64,000 nucleotides of DNA from Escherichia phage vB_EcoP_SU10. Position 1 is the stretch's first letter. Each line of letters begins with the position of its first letter. Positions 25,627 to 32,102 of the stretch are shown here, one piece after another. A model generated the notes under the pieces. The model saw only the letters and a program-made list of their open reading frames with translations, made no database searches and was not told the origin of the DNA. The position numbers were made by a program, and so were the translations under genes. The stretch is taken from the sequence record NC_027395.1; one strand, 5' to 3'.

Positions 25627-25635
25627 TAATGTATA
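25627..25635 (+). promoter_or_regulatory. TAATGTATA promoter-like element
   Basis: Exact 9-mer 38 nt upstream of ATG 25674. Confidence 0.5.
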
Positions 25636-25673
25636 TAGGGGGTAGGACATTTTTATTTATAAAAGGAGACGTT

Positions 25674-28600
25674 ATGGCTAACATTAAACCGTGGGAAGAA
25701 GCTTCCAAAGCTCCTGCGTATCTGAATGCCTCTCCGGAGCAACAAGCTCAAATGAGAGAACAATATAAGGCAGCAGGTGGCTCTATTCCTGAGGAACAAC
25801 CAGTAGCACAACCACAACAAGAAGAACGTGGTGCTATAGGCGAGTTTGCTCAAGGTGTGTCAAATGCTCTTCAATCTGGTGGTGCAAATATTGCAGCTAG
25901 TGCTGCTAAAGGTATTGGTGGTTTAGTTGAGATTGGTGAGAATCTAGCTGGAGCACAGACTAGTTATGGTAAGCGTATCCAAGAGAACTCTCAGAACCTT
26001 CTGAAAGAACGTATGGATAAGATTGAGGATGGGATTGGCAAAACTGTTGGTCAGTATGCTGGCGTTGCTGGTGATATTGGTATGACTGTTGCTAACCCAT
26101 TGGCTGCTGCTGCTATCATCGCAGGTCGTGAGACGGGTCGTGCATATGCAGACCAAACCCCTGAAGAGGGAGAAGATAAGTCTATTCTAGATGCAGCCTT
26201 AGTTGGTGGTGCTAACTATGCGGCCCAGAGAATCCTTCCGGGTGCTGTCGGCACAGCTGAGTCCACACTTGGACGTATTGGTCAGAACGTTGCCAGTAAC
26301 GCAGTGGCTGGTGCTAAAGGTGGTGCTCTTGTTGGTGCTGCTGAAGTTCAGAACAAGTATGGGGATGACAATGATCTAGCTAAGACATTGGAAGGTGTTA
26401 TCGAAGAGGGGGCTATGGGTGCTGCATTTGGTGGTGCAGTTGGTGGGGTTCATGGTTTGATTAGCCGTCCGGATTCTGTTGTTTTCAAGAATACTCCAGA
26501 GTATGCGAAGACTGATATTGCTGCTGATGACGAACTGATTCGTAGTGCTAAGAATGTTGATGAACTGAAAGAGGCTTACTCTAAAGCTGAAACTGCTAAC
26601 GCTGCTTCTGCTCTGAACCTCCTCGATGAGAATGGGTTCCGTATTACAGATGCTGTTGCTGTAGATTCTCCTGCTGCTCAGCGTATTCTTAACACTGACC
26701 AAGCTCGTGCTGAGAAAGCTGCTTCTGTTCAGAAAGAACACTCCAACATTCCGGGCCTTAATCCTTTAGCTTCTCCTGCTAAGACTCGTGGTAAAGCTTT
26801 CGCTGATAACGAGCACAACCAGAAACAGGCTGTTGCTATGAAGGATGCGATGGCTGACTATACCAAGGATAACACTAAAGCTCTTACAGATGTTTTAGAT
26901 AACCTAGACCGTGAATTAACCTCTCTCCGAGCTTCTGGTGATTTTACTGGTAGTCCGATTGATATTAAGAATCGCACACAAGCTGACCGTGACTTCATTG
27001 ATGCTTACAAGACTTTCTACAATGAAGCAAATCGATTCAAAGCTCGTGAAGGTGAAGACTTCAATAACTTTGTAGAGAAAGCTGCTGAACTACAGAAGAT
27101 GGCTGATAATGTTTCTCCAGAGATGAAGAAAGCTATTGGCGGGTTGAAGAAACTGAAGGGTATGCCTGAAGGTTTTAATCCTATCCAAGATGCTTACACT
27201 CTGAACAATACAGCTAAATTTATGAGTAACCAAGATCGCGGTTGGACTTCCCTGACTGATGATGGTTTCCGTGAAGCTTCTTCTCCTAGCCTGGTAATGA
27301 ACACTCTCGGTGCTGCTAAGTATGCTCTGAATCGCTTCTCTTCTCAGCGTGCTCGTTCTCAACGTGTTAAGCAACAAGAGTCTAACAGTGAAGCTATCCG
27401 CTCTCTGGCTCGTGGTGATTTGGAAGTTGCTCGTGCTAAATCTACTGCTAATGAAGCTCGTGCTAAGATGGAAGAAGAACCAGCTGTTGATGACATTAAA
27501 TTTAAGACGCAAAATGATGTAGAAACCGAACCGGTTCGGGAGCCTTCTTCTAGTACTGTGACGGAAGAAAATCTTCCTTCTTCTGCTCCTCAAGAAACCC
27601 CTCTTACAGCTCGTGATTTAGTTGCGCAAAGACGTGCTATCCGTCAGGCTGAACAGCGTCGCGCTGAAGAAGAGGCAGCTGCTGCTCAAGAAGTTCCGGT
27701 TGAACAAGCTCCACAGGCTGAACCTCTCCCTGCTCGTAATCCTTTAGAGGAACGTCGTGCAATGGAACAGCAACGTGCTCAAGAAGAGGCCTCACAAGCT
27801 CCAGAACCAACCGTAGAGGAACCAACGGTCAAAGCTGAGCCATTACCTGCCCGTGCTCCTAAAGCTCCTAAGGAAGCTGTACAGGACGTTAAACCGGCAA
27901 GTGGTGTAGAACGTTTAGCTGCTATGTCTAGTGCTGCTCGTCAGGCTACTAAAGATCGTGCAGAACGCTTTGCTCGTTCTCTGTATTCTAAGGCTGCTAA
28001 GGCTAAAGCTACTGCTGAAAACTTCTTGGCTTATAAGGGCGATCCTAAGGAATTGATGCGTCGTATTCGTCAGGAAGATAATGCTATCAACACTGAACGT
28101 CATGAAGAAATGGCTCGTAACCAGCTGGCTTCTCAGCAAGGTATTGCTACTGCTAAGAACAACACTGTACGAACTAGTTTTGCTGAATGGGTTAAGGAAC
28201 GTGGTCTGCCAGAAGACATTGCTACTAAGGCATTACGTGCTGAAGAGAAAGGTTTAGGTGGGAACGTAACTAACTTGGATAGTCTGAAACGTCGTGCTGA
28301 AAGGTTGTATCAGAAGCAGCGTGAGGATGAGTTTGATAGATTATATCAACAAGCTCTAGAAGAGAACAAAGCTTTCGATAAGAAGGATGCTCCTAAACTG
28401 GTTGACCAGAAGAAAGAGCTTCAGTCTGAGATTGATGCTTTGATTGATTCAGAACCTTTACGTCCTGCTCAGAAAGATGCTATGCGTAAGCTGATGAATG
28501 ATTTTGTAGATGGGAAGTTTAAATCTTCAGAGAAGGCTGGTAGGGAAGAGGCTTTGGAAGTTGGTCAGATGAAGGATATTTGGGATGGGTTTATTAACAC

Positions 28601-30095
28601 CTATAACAGAGAAGTAAATGCCTTCAACAAAGCTAACAAGAACTCTCAGTACGAAGCTGCTGCTAAGCATTTACAGGCTCGTGAAGAACGTCTTGCTACC
28701 CTCAGGAAAAAGGCTCAGGCTCGTTCGGATGCTAAGGCTGCTGTTGAGAATGAACGTAAAACTCTAGAGGCTATTGCAGCTCAGAAGAGTGAGATTGAGA
28801 AGATGATGGAAGGTTTACCTAAACCTGTTCGTGAGGCTCAGGAATCTCGTACTCTGAAACAGTTGGCTGCTCACCACGATAAGAACTCTCCAGTTCCTCC
28901 AGAGAAGTTCCGTAGTTATATTGAACGTATCCACAATGCCGAGTCAGATTACCTTGATCGTCAGCGTCGTTTAACTGATGCAGAGGAAGATGCTCGTCAG
29001 GCTAAGTGGAACAAGATGTATGAGCAAGCGGAAGAGATGAACCGTAAGTTTGATGTGGACAAGAGAGTTAAGCGCAGTGAAGAGCTTAAAGCGGCCCAAG
29101 AGCGTGAGAATGATCTTATGGCAGTACAACGTCAACGTGATGACATTCATCGCCGCCTGATGCGTACTATGGAAGATAAGGGCATATCTAGAGAGGATGC
29201 TGAAGCGTTTGCCGGCTCCTATATGGATAACCGTTATGCACTTCTTGAGAAACCTATGACTCCGACTGAACATCAGAATGCTCGTTCTCGTATCGAAGCT
29301 GATGTTGAGAAATTCGCTAAGAAGTATGAATCAATGACTCCTATTGAGAAAGAGATTGTTAAGGTTACTGGAGATACTGAAGGTAAGCTTGATAACTTGG
29401 ATGCGGATACTAGGAAGGCTATTGAGGAGGCTCAGAAGGTTGACTCTGATATTAAGAAACTGCAAGAGGAAGAATTGGAGATGGAGAAGATTCGTTCTGC
29501 TCTGCCTGATGATGAAAAATCTCAAGCAAATTCTGATATCTTGGAAAGCATTAAACAACAGGAAGAGGTCTTTGCTGATAAAGTAGAGAAAGCTTTCTTG
29601 AGTGGGAAAAGCTTGGATGAGTTGGCTAGTGTGGCTGAAGTTTTAGACAGGGTTCATGGTGCAGATAAGGCTGGTAACAACCGTCGCTTTGTACGTGCAT
29701 TGCAGACTGCTGCTGAAAACAAGAAGAAGTATGGTGATAATCCAGTAGCTTGGTTTAGTGCTGATGATTACTCTGCCATTGCTAAACTTGGTGCTTCTTC
29801 CGCAGGTGGTAACAAATCCAGAGCACTGGAGAAGATCTTTGGTTCTACAGCTGAACAGGCTAAGAGTAAGTTGCTTGGTAGGGATGATGTAGCGAAGATG
29901 AGACGTGTGATTGAAGAGAACCCTGATATTAAGATTCCTTCTTACAAGACAACGAATCGTACTGAGTACTTGCAATTCTTGGAGAAGTTTAATGACGAAG
30001 GGAAGCCGAAGATTAAACGTGGCTCATTGTCAGAGAAGCTTGAACGAAGTAAGCGTCAATCGAGACTCCGTGTAAGAGTTCGACCTAAGGAGTGA
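25674..30095 (+). CDS. Very large virion protein (1473 aa), candidate internal/ejection protein
   Basis: AAGGAG RBS before ATG 25674; A/E/K/R-rich with long helical segments; last gene of + module. Confidence 0.6.
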   Translation: MANIKPWEEASKAPAYLNASPEQQAQMREQYKAAGGSIPEEQPVAQPQQEERGAIGEFAQGVSNALQSGGANIAASAAKGIGGLVEIGENLAGAQTSYGKRIQENSQNLLKERMDKIEDGIGKTVGQYAGVAGDIGMTVANPLAAAAIIAGRETGRAYADQTPEEGEDKSILDAALVGGANYAAQRILPGAVGTAESTLGRIGQNVASNAVAGAKGGALVGAAEVQNKYGDDNDLAKTLEGVIEEGAMGAAFGGAVGGVHGLISRPDSVVFKNTPEYAKTDIAADDELIRSAKNVDELKEAYSKAETANAASALNLLDENGFRITDAVAVDSPAAQRILNTDQARAEKAASVQKEHSNIPGLNPLASPAKTRGKAFADNEHNQKQAVAMKDAMADYTKDNTKALTDVLDNLDRELTSLRASGDFTGSPIDIKNRTQADRDFIDAYKTFYNEANRFKAREGEDFNNFVEKAAELQKMADNVSPEMKKAIGGLKKLKGMPEGFNPIQDAYTLNNTAKFMSNQDRGWTSLTDDGFREASSPSLVMNTLGAAKYALNRFSSQRARSQRVKQQESNSEAIRSLARGDLEVARAKSTANEARAKMEEEPAVDDIKFKTQNDVETEPVREPSSSTVTEENLPSSAPQETPLTARDLVAQRRAIRQAEQRRAEEEAAAAQEVPVEQAPQAEPLPARNPLEERRAMEQQRAQEEASQAPEPTVEEPTVKAEPLPARAPKAPKEAVQDVKPASGVERLAAMSSAARQATKDRAERFARSLYSKAAKAKATAENFLAYKGDPKELMRRIRQEDNAINTERHEEMARNQLASQQGIATAKNNTVRTSFAEWVKERGLPEDIATKALRAEEKGLGGNVTNLDSLKRRAERLYQKQREDEFDRLYQQALEENKAFDKKDAPKLVDQKKELQSEIDALIDSEPLRPAQKDAMRKLMNDFVDGKFKSSEKAGREEALEVGQMKDIWDGFINTYNREVNAFNKANKNSQYEAAAKHLQAREERLATLRKKAQARSDAKAAVENERKTLEAIAAQKSEIEKMMEGLPKPVREAQESRTLKQLAAHHDKNSPVPPEKFRSYIERIHNAESDYLDRQRRLTDAEEDARQAKWNKMYEQAEEMNRKFDVDKRVKRSEELKAAQERENDLMAVQRQRDDIHRRLMRTMEDKGISREDAEAFAGSYMDNRYALLEKPMTPTEHQNARSRIEADVEKFAKKYESMTPIEKEIVKVTGDTEGKLDNLDADTRKAIEEAQKVDSDIKKLQEEELEMEKIRSALPDDEKSQANSDILESIKQQEEVFADKVEKAFLSGKSLDELASVAEVLDRVHGADKAGNNRRFVRALQTAAENKKKYGDNPVAWFSADDYSAIAKLGASSAGGNKSRALEKIFGSTAEQAKSKLLGRDDVAKMRRVIEENPDIKIPSYKTTNRTEYLQFLEKFNDEGKPKIKRGSLSEKLERSKRQSRLRVRVRPKE

Positions 30096-30103
30096 TAAAA
30101 GAA

Positions 30104-30142
30104 AAGCCCTCGAGGAGAAATCCAAGAGGGCTTTATTTGTTT
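30104..30142. terminator. Bidirectional Rho-independent terminator between convergent modules
   Basis: AAGCCCTC...GAGGGCTT hairpin flanked by T-runs on both strands. Confidence 0.65.
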
Positions 30143-30187
30143 CTAAGTTTTAAAAACCATCAAATTCGTCATACATCCCAATTTTCT

Positions 30188-30280
30188 TCAGAAGTCTGGA
30201 TGTTCATCTTCAAAACATCCTGAGATGCCTCCGTAGAACCAATCTGATTTACTGCCAAGAATAACAACTTCTTCATTCAT
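30188..30280 (-). CDS. Small ORF (30 aa)
   Basis: AGGAG RBS 5 nt upstream of ATG; below track threshold. Confidence 0.3.
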   Translation of the reverse strand: MNEEVVILGSKSDWFYGGISGCFEDEHPDF

Positions 30281-30288
30281 ATAATCTC

Positions 30289-30450
30289 CTAGATTGTGTT
30301 TATAAAATTAATAAGTTTCTCTTCACTTTCATCAAAAGCTTTTCCAGCTGCTTCCATCTCCCAAGTATTGGCATTGTCAATAAAGCTCTGAGCTTCTAAT
30401 AGATCGTGGATTAAGTCGAAGAGTTTATTTTTATCTGTTTGTGTGATCAT
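30289..30450 (-). CDS. Small ORF (53 aa)
   Basis: AGGAA RBS; acidic helical peptide. Confidence 0.3.
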   Translation of the reverse strand: MITQTDKNKLFDLIHDLLEAQSFIDNANTWEMEAAGKAFDESEEKLINFINTI

Positions 30451-30458
30451 ATCAGTTC

Positions 30459-30716
30459 CTAGATTAAATCGTAATACTGAATAATGTCAGAGAGTTTGAA
30501 CTCTCGAATCTCATCTTTCTCTATATCTATCGCTGTCATAATCCAACAAGGTTTGCCACCGTTATGAAAACGGGAGCTAGCAACGGAGGTTCGGAGTGGA
30601 ATAACGGACCGGTCAGCAATCTCGCCTCTCCAATTGCGATAGCGAAAGCGAAGCACTTGTTGCGTAGATTTTTGATCATCACTCATTTCCTTTTTTGAAT
30701 TGTTTTCTTGCATCAT
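30459..30716 (-). CDS. Small WYL-like domain protein (start uncertain)
   Basis: LRFRYRNWRGEIADRSVIP...CWIMTAIDIEKDEIREFKLSDI resembles WYL-domain pattern; longer track ORF overlaps HNH gene. Confidence 0.4.
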   Translation of the reverse strand: MMQENNSKKEMSDDQKSTQQVLRFRYRNWRGEIADRSVIPLRTSVASSRFHNGGKPCWIMTAIDIEKDEIREFKLSDIIQYYDLI

Positions 30717-31080
30717 TCTCTTCTTTTGTTTTAATCTTATGACAAGGGTCTTTACACAGAACCTGAAACCCTTCTTTCTCACACAGGGCACGAGAGATGA
30801 TTTCATCCCAAGTTGCTTCATGGTCAAGAGGAACTATAGGCTCTATGTGGTCAATAGCCATATCCTTTATAGGGTGGTCAGAACCACACATGGCACACTT
30901 AAAGTGCATTGCCAGTCTACCTGTCTTTGGATTAATCTTCTGCTCTGTCTTGGCGTCTGCTAGTGCATCGAACATGGGCTTCCACTTTCTAGTCAGAGAA
31001 CGAATCCCTGACTTGATGAAAGAGTTGTAACGAGCTTCAGTCCACATTCCACTACAGCGAGTCTTCTCAGACTTCGCCAT
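30679..31080 (-). CDS. HNH endonuclease
   Basis: CAMCGSDHPIKDMAIDHIEPI and CKDPCH motifs. Confidence 0.75.
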   Translation of the reverse strand: MAKSEKTRCSGMWTEARYNSFIKSGIRSLTRKWKPMFDALADAKTEQKINPKTGRLAMHFKCAMCGSDHPIKDMAIDHIEPIVPLDHEATWDEIISRALCEKEGFQVLCKDPCHKIKTKEENDARKQFKKGNE

Positions 31081-31246
31081 AATCAGCTTCTTCCCAAACT
31101 CGTTTGTTTACACGATGACTCACTTTACCCTCACGAGGAATACGACCAGTTCGCTGATCAAACAGTTGATGTTTAATCTTTTGGTCTTTACGAGATTCAC
31201 GATTGGAGGAGTTTTCATCATATGAACGATAATCAAATTTACCCAT
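31067..31246 (-). CDS. Small basic protein (59 aa)
   Basis: AAGGA RBS; stop overlaps HNH start; below track threshold. Confidence 0.35.
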   Translation of the reverse strand: MGKFDYRSYDENSSNRESRKDQKIKHQLFDQRTGRIPREGKVSHRVNKRVWEEADYGEV

Positions 31247-31259
31247 TATAATATCCTTA

Positions 31260-32102
31260 TTACCAAGATTTATCTAACCATGTCCAGTCGAACAGGTCTT
31301 CCGGAGTCTGACCAACAAAGAGAAGCCGAGCATTCTCAAGCATCTTCTCTTCATCTTCAGTATCGAACTTCTTATAATATTCCATTCGTACTATATGATA
31401 CATGGTCCACTTGTCTGTAACACCAGCCAACAACTTAGCTGCTGCTTTCTTCCCTATTCCTTGACGTCGAAGCTGAAGCTTACCTCCCCACATAACTTCT
31501 TTACGTTCTCCACATCCGGGGATATTATCTGTACCATCTCCAACCAACATCTGATAGAAGAAGTTTTGCCATGAAACTAAATCAGATACGTAGTGAGGAG
31601 GAACCTCTTTTTGTCTTTCTCCACAAGCCCAACGGTAATGCCATCCGGGAGTTATCAACAAATCCTTGTCTCTCGTACAGATGATAGTGTTCTTATCTCT
31701 ACGTTGCCTTTCAGCTAATGCATCATCAGCCTCTCTCCCAAATACATCTATGTATTCATATTTACCTTTAATATAATCACCAACATTTTGCCAGTGAAAA
31801 GGTCTTTCTCCGGGAGGTCTATTTGCTTTGTAGTCTTGCTGTTTAGCAACATCAAAACGGAAGTTACCACCTTCGCTGAAGTAGAACACAACCTTGCTAC
31901 AACCCGAGCGAGCTATGATTGTATCGATCTTGTACTGAAGTCGTTCAATCATGAAATTGTAATCAACTGGAACACGTCCTGTGTCAAGGAAGGGATGCTC
32001 CTGAGTAAGAGCACCTACTTCATACCGAAGAACGTCAGCGTCCACTATAGCAACTTCAGGGAGCTTAACCTCTTCCATAAATATCATCCTGAGCTTGAGC
32101 AA
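31260..32102 (-). CDS. 5'-3' exonuclease / flap endonuclease
   Basis: VAIVDADVL, ICTRDKDLL and GIGKKAAAKLL (H3TH-like) motifs. Confidence 0.75.
   Translation of the reverse strand: MLKLRMIFMEEVKLPEVAIVDADVLRYEVGALTQEHPFLDTGRVPVDYNFMIERLQYKIDTIIARSGCSKVVFYFSEGGNFRFDVAKQQDYKANRPPGERPFHWQNVGDYIKGKYEYIDVFGREADDALAERQRRDKNTIICTRDKDLLITPGWHYRWACGERQKEVPPHYVSDLVSWQNFFYQMLVGDGTDNIPGCGERKEVMWGGKLQLRRQGIGKKAAAKLLAGVTDKWTMYHIVRMEYYKKFDTEDEEKMLENARLLFVGQTPEDLFDWTWLDKSW

Follow-up and report, generated by a model that had tools for sequence, protein, structure and literature searches.

WYL domains are currently studied as sensors of single-stranded DNA (ssDNA) through which CBASS, BREX and non-SOS damage responses are turned on, and to our knowledge every characterised WYL domain is wired to a helix-turn-helix (HTH) or to an enzyme. 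Here we describe a gene of Escherichia phage vB_EcoP_SU10 that encodes this module alone. It was analysed in a stretch of 64,000 nucleotides (nt) from sequence record NC_027395.1, called the window below, where it is an open reading frame (ORF) of the minus strand ending at position 30459. A first-pass annotation of the window had presented WYL domains as typically sensor modules of defence-system regulators; this is one part of the picture, to which PafBC, DriD, the PIF1 helicase and a Cas13d accessory protein also belong. WYL domains are present in the DNA-damage regulators PafBC and DriD, their best-documented ligand is ssDNA (PMC11662680, PMC10853764), and bacterial fusions are known that join them to an HNH, a helicase or an exonuclease module (PMC4012209).

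The ORF ending at 30459 is a homologue of phi32_29 of phage phiEco32. Against the Pfam family PF13280 the window protein scores 21.1 bits (E 3.1e-4), a near miss of the gathering score of 21.8 bits, and the longest form of the ORF (122 residues) scores 19.1 bits. The WYL model of PADLOC matches it with an E value of 8e-5, and phrog_3715 with one of 3.3e-22 (80.2 bits, residues 3-73). Its relatives give higher scores: PF13280 is matched by 18/18 close homologues at E <= 0.01 (best 5.3e-8) and by 84/150 distant representatives at E <= 1e-3 (best 2.2e-11), and a precomputed PF13280 match exists for 7 of 17 homologues. When sequences of the PDB are searched, a broad family profile yields weak but consistent matches to PafBC, BrxR and CapW (best E 0.002) and a narrow one only noise. 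The AlphaFold2 model is an all-beta, five-stranded barrel with a predicted local distance difference test (pLDDT) score of 86.5; Foldseek places WYL proteins, and nothing else, at ranks 1-25 of the PDB matches, and in two structure comparisons the best solved structures are the WYL domains of CapW, BrxR, PafBC and DriD. Thus the hidden Markov model (HMM) search that the first-pass annotation had proposed for the WYL resemblance it noticed is borderline for this sequence and clear for its relatives; since the predicted structures agree, we regard the domain as a WYL domain.

The residues of the WYL motif present are Y16, G21, R26, V28, P30, W48, R61, F63 and I68; I49 stands in place of the motif Tyr/His and D67 in place of the last Arg. 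The eponymous residues are poorly conserved in WYL domains generally (PMC4012209). We looked for an HTH or a WCX domain and found neither by Pfam, in the all-beta model or in the disordered tail, the chain ending 5-7 residues past the last barrel strand. No other family was detected in Pfam, NCBIfam or PADLOC apart from chance-level, sub-threshold matches to Nse4_C (Pfam) and JetA (PADLOC), and the NCBIfam scan of the window protein returned zero matches. From profiles and model alike, the protein is one lone WYL domain (75-85 residues in all) behind a short tail predicted to be disordered, with no DNA-binding or enzymatic domain, i.e. the stand-alone WYL protein that the first reading of the letters had proposed.

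By the evidence of its conservation, this solo-WYL gene is real and constrained, well beyond chance. The region 30200-31300 shares 98% identity with Escherichia phage vB_EcoP_EcoN5 and ~97-98% with many other phiEco32-like podophages (Kuravirus, Gordonclarkvirinae). Pairwise comparison of the Gordonclarkvirinae copies over 64 core codons gives ratios of non-synonymous to synonymous substitutions (dN/dS) of 0.10-0.30 at a near-saturated dS of 0.6-1.0, and by these low ratios the WYL frame is under purifying selection. In more distant phage contigs (59-69% identity) the gene order exonuclease, small gene, HNH, WYL is retained.

The family is large: a profile search of 1.84 billion representatives yields at least 2,633 clusters (50% identity) at E <= 1e-3. 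Among the best 150 clusters, 53 are proteins of at most 90 residues, 89 are of at most 130, and six are tandem WYL-WYL proteins. In an alignment of 168 domains, 13 positions reach a conservation of 90% or more (Y16, N18, G21, R26, P30, H41, W48, A52, D54, K57, R61, F63 and D67), and the family has an invariant signature of its own: Y16 N18 R26 H41 D54 K57 R61 D67. Other fusions are rare and heterogeneous: one to HD_4 (E 4.6e-10), zinc fingers with weak matches (Lar-like, DnaJ-type), and, in Aeromonas jumbo phages, a 504-residue protein annotated as CYTH-like. Among the 150 representatives no recurrent fusion partner could serve as a functional clue, the partners being sporadic and mostly sub-threshold; HD_4 alone is significant, once. 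The 504-residue protein, gp098 of Aeromonas phage D6 (L009 1669-3183), is named “CYTH-like phosphatase” and carries, C-terminally (residues 441-500), a domain of the solo-WYL type; Pfam recognises no CYTH domain along the chain.

Of 50,697 phage records ~360-400 carry the family (about 0.8%), all of them large virulent phages. The carriers include Gordonclarkvirinae, Vequintavirinae with their Klebsiella, Cronobacter, Salmonella, Erwinia and Pectobacterium relatives, Grimontviridae, a Bacillus spounavirus, phages of Rhizobium, Rhodobacter and Caulobacter, and Aeromonas jumbo phages. No DNA-level copy of the gene was found in 5,426 E. coli genomes. Outside phages, the BFVD structure database contains V9SDX8, an 83-residue protein of Tunisvirus fontaine2 (Marseilleviridae, a giant virus of amoebae), with 40% identity, a TM score of 0.75 and an E value of 7.9e-6; because it matches the solo-WYL model, the family extends to a eukaryotic giant virus. 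About 20 MG0656xx records (“Campylobacter phage A116, C11, A147 ...”) contain a WYL gene that shares 99-100% identity with the one in rV5-like E. coli phages (Vequintavirus), and mislabelling or contamination of these records is probable.

The existence of such proteins is already recorded by automatic annotation. The profile match ties phrog_3715 to the same family, and the phage entries named “WYL domain-containing protein” (JLBYU08_13, Cronobacter phage A24 gp041, RcZahn gp130, Vibrio phage Vp_R1) are homologues by tblastn and Foldseek. These names are automatic only, phrog_3715 is labelled “unknown function”, and the literature searched did not yield any work on the function of a solo-WYL protein from a phage. 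What distinguishes the family from the characterised WYL proteins is its solo architecture together with its own signature.

The first-pass annotation had also described an overlap with the upstream HNH gene, in another frame, that depends on the start codon used. Its ORF and HNH coordinates, its in-frame ATGs and its overlaps were all recovered from the ORF list and the sequence, and the peptide it quoted is present: the overlap is 149 nt for the 122-residue form, 38/35 nt from ATG 30716/30713 and 8 nt from ATG 30686 (Table 1). To choose between these starts six Gordonclarkvirinae loci were compared. The pair ATG 30716/30713 is kept in 6/6, in agreement with the shorter internal starts that had been suggested, and the resulting coding sequence of 84 residues is the GenBank annotation in Bas91, Ptacy1479 and EP335. 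We rejected the 122-residue form because in Ptacy1479 and Bas87 its frame meets stop codons upstream of 30716. No relative has a long form annotated except for one 120-residue call (FS2B). ATG 30686 was also rejected as a general start, EP335 having ACA there, despite the annotation of phi32_29 in phiEco32 as the 75-residue form (228 nt); an AAGGA motif lies just 1 nt upstream of this ATG. The choice hardly affects the WYL fold, because the residues ahead of the domain are conserved among homologues neither in length nor in sequence and are predicted to be disordered (pLDDT 40-57 for the first 20 residues of the 85-residue model). The mass is ~9-10 kDa. A look for proteomic evidence of translation in the published SU10 work, supplements included, gave nothing.

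Table 1. Positions of the solo-WYL gene, its alternative forms and parts, and the neighbouring features in the window
Feature	Coordinates	Strand	Remarks
Longest form of the WYL ORF	30459-30827	-	TTG start; 122 aa (amino acids)
Solo-WYL gene, conserved start pair ATG 30716/30713	30459-30716	-	85/84 aa; TAG stop 30461-30459
Alternative 75-aa form, ATG 30686 (ATGAGTGA)	30459-30686	-	8-nt overlap with the HNH stop codon; phiEco32 annotation
WYL / Sm-like beta-barrel domain (predicted)	30477-30662	-	Residues 9-70 of the 75-aa form; ~62 residues
Hydrophilic N-terminal tail, variable, predicted disordered	30663-30716	-	Includes the 38-nt overlap with the HNH 3' end (30679-30716)
Upstream extension of the longest ORF (TTG 30827), outside the gene	30717-30827	-	Frame stops in Ptacy1479 and Bas87
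HNH endonuclease gene, directly upstream of WYL	30679-31080	-	phrog_3106 E 5.3e-40; Pfam HNH weak, E 0.027
59-aa gene, phrog_10643, between exonuclease and HNH	31067-31246	-	Syntenic in all Gordonclarkvirinae loci
5'-3' (flap) exonuclease gene, same operon	31260-32102	-	“exonuclease” or “5'-3' exonuclease” in Bas91, Ptacy1479 and phiEco32
53-aa gene, DUF7438 / phrog_653, downstream of WYL	30289-30450	-	Pfam PF24219 E 3.3e-14; phrog_653 E 5.2e-15
Last small ORF of the operon	30169-30276	-	35 aa; positional equivalent of phi32_27 (also 108 nt)
Terminator-like hairpin and T run, end of the middle-gene operon	30107-30128	-	Consensus scan only; faces the convergent plus-strand 1488-aa gene

To examine the ligand face, the family alignment was laid on BrxR, PafBC and CapW by profile alignments and then on the published ssDNA contacts of CapW (PMC11662680) and DriD (PMC10853764). 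Y168, R178, R204 and W206 of DriD correspond to Y16, R26, R61 and F63 of the phage protein; the first three are phosphate contacts in DriD (PMC10853764). S144 and R184 of CapW correspond to N18 and R61, and their equivalents in the E. coli protein, S158 and R200, are essential for signalling (PMC11662680). The residues aligned with the RWHVR motif are C47-W48-I49-M50-T51, for a family consensus of Q-W-L-[LM]-x. Thus the phosphate-binding core appears to be kept and the pocket remodelled, and a nucleic-acid or nucleotide ligand is likely.

The gene lies close to the distal end of an operon that also contains the genes of a sigma factor, a deoxynucleoside monophosphate kinase, the 5'-3' exonuclease and the HNH protein. 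In phiEco32, genes 27-68 are the experimentally defined middle class, transcribed with the replication genes (PMC8948821, PMC4281155), and by its position the WYL gene would belong to this middle-gene cluster of phiEco32-type phages. In twelve hand-picked lineages the neighbours of WYL are mostly replication, nuclease or nucleotide-metabolism genes. The order is flap exonuclease, small gene, HNH, WYL in the window and in other Kuravirus; 5'-exonuclease, RNase H-like protein, EndoVII (62-nt overlap), WYL and DnaQ-like exonuclease in Vequintavirus; exonuclease, WYL, primase and dUTPase in Bacillus phage JL; exodeoxyribonuclease, ThyX, WYL, dUTPase and ribonucleotide reductase in Rhizobium phage TM30; and ThyA, WYL and DNA ligase in Vibrio phage SJSY21. 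In Caulobacter phage Sansa the neighbour is the beta clamp. PADLOC found no defence matches in the genes neighbouring WYL.

We tentatively favour, at somewhat less than an even chance, the reading that the protein is a dispensable binder of single-stranded nucleic acid serving phage DNA metabolism. Its target would be single-stranded nucleic acid bearing phosphate, with ends, flaps or short fragments of ssDNA as the most likely form, bound through a face formed by Y16, R26, R61 and N18 and by the family-specific H41, D54, K57 and D67. It would probably work as a dimer or higher oligomer, a dimeric unit being suggested by the existence of the tandem WYL-WYL members. Produced together with the middle (replication and nucleotide-metabolism) genes, it would have an accessory and dispensable part in replicating, recombining or repairing the phage DNA and be no transcription regulator, and might mark or protect single-stranded intermediates or hand them to neighbouring nucleases: the flap exonuclease and HNH here; the RNase H-like protein, EndoVII and the DnaQ-like exonuclease in Vequintavirinae. 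This reading draws on the DNA-metabolism context in independent lineages, the retained ligand-face residues, the place in the middle-gene cluster, the precedents of WYL-enzyme fusions and of the ssDNA-binding accessory WYL domain in PIF1, and the restriction of the family to large virulent phages with replication genes of their own.

Data on dispensability come from a transposon study of phage Bas54 by HIDEN-SEQ, in which bas54_0193 is a gene of 222 nt that overlaps EndoVII by 62 nt and is followed by a DnaQ-like exonuclease (bioRxiv 10.1101/2025.11.20.689424). These lengths and this gene order are identical to those of the WYL locus of Bas50 and JLBYU08, and the WYL gene is conserved at 95% nucleotide identity or more across 121 Vequintavirus records. 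From the identical lengths, the same overlap, the synteny and this identity, bas54_0193 is the probable WYL orthologue. Insertions were recovered at 15/16 of its TA sites and it was classed “Non-essential” on K-12; on the clinical isolate CFE311 it was not depleted (log2 fold change +0.10, p 0.86), and the adjacent EndoVII and DnaQ-like exonuclease are likewise dispensable (bioRxiv 10.1101/2025.11.20.689424). As the Vequintavirus protein is ~40% identical to the window protein, dispensability in Kuravirus is an inference from the Bas54 result. In the same study the mean read counts of bas54_0193 are 716-767, i.e. 7-10x those of adjacent non-essential genes (60-100; Extended Data Table 8). It seems that insertions are exceptionally well borne at this gene, or even advantageous; alternatively the counts reflect a bias, local to this site, of insertion or expression.

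Several observations weigh against a binder of single-stranded nucleic acid in DNA metabolism. On the ligand face, two of the four residues of CapW in contact with ssDNA, the RWHVR arginines, are replaced (C47, T51); Y192 of DriD, the motif Tyr in contact with ssDNA, is I49; the canonical “dRI” Arg is D67, an invariant Asp in the family; and the WCX residues which complete the ssDNA pocket in DriD and CapW have no counterpart. Because of these replacements and absences the ligand may differ from ssDNA. As to the context, the WYL gene of Grimontviridae (phages 7-11, A24) stands beside ATP-grasp, NUDIX and RNA ligase 2 genes, and that of RcZahn, another exception, among genes of unknown function. 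The position of the HNH gene is conserved in Gordonclarkvirinae, while most WYL-bearing lineages are without this HNH; the link is lineage-specific and does not point to any constant partner. Where small genes crowd a phage genome, neighbourhood is a weak argument for function. Finally, as bas54_0193 tolerates insertions at nearly all its TA sites, any replication role would be dispensable on K-12.

A lone WYL domain might also act as a decoy or sponge which soaks up short ssDNA, or another nucleotide-type signal, and blinds the WYL sensors of the cell; the events prevented would be the derepression of CapW-CBASS or BrxR-BREX, or the switch-on of damage responses. We judge this rather unlikely. 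The domain family and the closest fold are indeed common with CapW and BrxR, including ssDNA-bound CapW, the kept N18 and R61 are the equivalents of CapW S144 and R184, and a protein without output domain fits a pure binder. WYL repressors do answer to phage infection and ssDNA (PMC13622015, PMC11662680), but in V. cholerae the derepression is not needed to block a first infection and acts on later attacks (PMC13622015), so the selective pressure on a lytic phage to suppress it in the course of a single cycle seems slight. The gene stands in the middle cluster, i.e. the replication module of phiEco32-type phages, not in the early host-takeover cluster, and its protein lacks both the arginines of RWHVR and the half of the pocket that WCX provides. 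The non-essentiality of the probable orthologue on K-12 would fit a conditional counter-defence, but the orthologue was not conditionally required on CFE311 either, and no report of such an activity was found in the literature searched. The proposal of the first-pass annotation that the protein senses or sequesters a host signalling ligand is likewise not supported by the position in the middle cluster, the DNA-metabolism neighbours, the replaced arginines and the dispensable orthologue. That solo WYL proteins are a new type of counter-defence, a decoy competing with CapW, BrxR and DriD/PafBC-like sensors for the ssDNA generated by infection, we hold to be improbable.

We also consider unlikely that the protein is a ligand-sensing regulatory subunit, in which WYL would bind a nucleotide or nucleic-acid cue and switch a partner enzyme by protein contact (HNH here, EndoVII or others elsewhere), as a split version of the bacterial WYL-nuclease fusions. 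Overlap and probable translational coupling with an upstream small nuclease are seen in two unrelated lineages (38/35 nt with HNH, 62 nt with EndoVII), WYL-HNH, WYL-helicase and WYL-exonuclease fusions exist (PMC4012209), and the family itself has the sporadic fusions to HD_4 and to the CYTH-like-annotated protein. These partners are nevertheless diverse, rare and none recurrent, and the two small nucleases, HNH of Kuravirus and EndoVII of Vequintavirus, were tested for homology and share no detectable sequence similarity. A conserved HNH-WYL two-gene module was rejected. The Zobellviridae homologues of the HNH (184 records) have no WYL within 2.5 kb in HMM searches of six-frame translations, and most WYL lineages do without this HNH.

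Proteins of the Sm-like type, Hfq among them, have the same five-stranded bent beta-barrel superfold and a similar stand-alone size (60-80 residues). An Sm/Hfq-like binder, assembled as a ring and holding phage or host RNA as chaperone or regulator, is nevertheless very unlikely in our estimation; the highest-ranking structures in our searches were those of WYL proteins. Lastly, a non-functional remnant, either the “captured fragment” of a host WYL regulator suggested at first or a chance ORF overlapping HNH, is scarcely credible, for despite the score just below the Pfam cut-off and the long HNH overlap of the longest form, it is refuted by the purifying selection, the thirteen conserved positions and the many family clusters of mostly short proteins, besides the synteny kept across the phage subfamily and the confidently predicted fold.

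Some features of the neighbourhood deserve mention. The HNH gene, correctly named in the first pass (Table 1), goes by the name “terminase small subunit” in a large number of Kuravirus records and also in Pseudomonas phages O4 and TC6. The wrong name has probably been passed from record to record, for its PHROG places the gene firmly in HNH endonucleases. In phiEco32 a second HNH gene, phi32_31 (453 nt; L011 7451-7903), stands between the resident HNH and the 59-residue gene, and resembles a mobile gene of the homing type inserted next to the resident HNH; the window (31067-31090) is without it. In relatives the exonuclease has a coding sequence of 819 nt, which corresponds to 31260-32078 here. 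On the other side of WYL, the DUF7438 gene has a faint resemblance (E 0.015) to a PHROG labelled “helicase loader”; neither this gene nor the 35-residue ORF is present in the distant contigs L012 and L013, where WYL ends the operon. A terminator after the last middle gene has been proposed for phage SU10 (PMC4281155). The convergent gene at 25629-30095 on the plus strand, a phi32_26 homologue of 1488 residues very rich in E, K, A and Q and containing repeats, stops ~70 nt short of where the minus-strand operon finishes, with the terminator-like hairpin between them; elsewhere it is annotated “putative liver stage antigen”.

The gene represents a large family in which the sensor module stands alone, including members in Kuravirus and rV5-like phages that are therapeutic candidates. 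The identity of the ligand would show either what virulent phages do with single-stranded intermediates or whether ssDNA sensing by the host is disturbed by them. If the decoy hypothesis were true, the phage would have copied the sensor module of its host to blind it, and WYL-controlled immune and damage operons would stay uninduced. The protein also offers, at ~62 residues, a minimal WYL domain on which structure and binding can be studied. A practical yield is the correction of names, both for the HNH gene (“terminase small subunit”) and for the WYL gene, for which “transcription factor” and “YobV regulator” are over-statements.

How the phage protein compares with the known systems can now be stated. 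It shares with CapW (CBASS) and BrxR (BREX) the WYL domain family and the closest fold, including the ssDNA-bound CapW structure. These repressors have in addition a winged HTH (wHTH), linker helices and a WCX dimerisation domain, of which the phage protein has none, and they adjoin defence systems, whereas the phage gene stands in a virulent-phage middle operon between HNH and DUF7438. The DNA-damage activators DriD and PafBC have an HTH and an RNA-polymerase-recruiting function that are both absent here, and the WCX contacts Y240 and R288 of DriD have no counterpart. Having neither HTH nor WCX, the phage protein cannot act as a WYL transcription factor; it is outside the wHTH-WYL-WCX regulator family, from which it also differs by the loss of the RWHVR arginines and by not standing beside a controlled operon. 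WYL1, the accessory protein of type VI-D CRISPR-Cas13d, whose ligand is single-stranded RNA, has ~390 residues with extra N-terminal and dimerisation domains, and its match is much weaker than those of CapW and BrxR. The accessory WYL domain in PIF1, a helicase of Thermotoga elfii, reportedly binds ssDNA and adds to a DNA-metabolism enzyme with no transcription sensing. Set beside the phage protein by description, it is the nearest functional analogy to a binder of single-stranded nucleic acid in phage DNA metabolism, with the difference that the WYL domain of PIF1 is covalently joined to its helicase whereas that of the phage is a separate polypeptide without a fixed partner.

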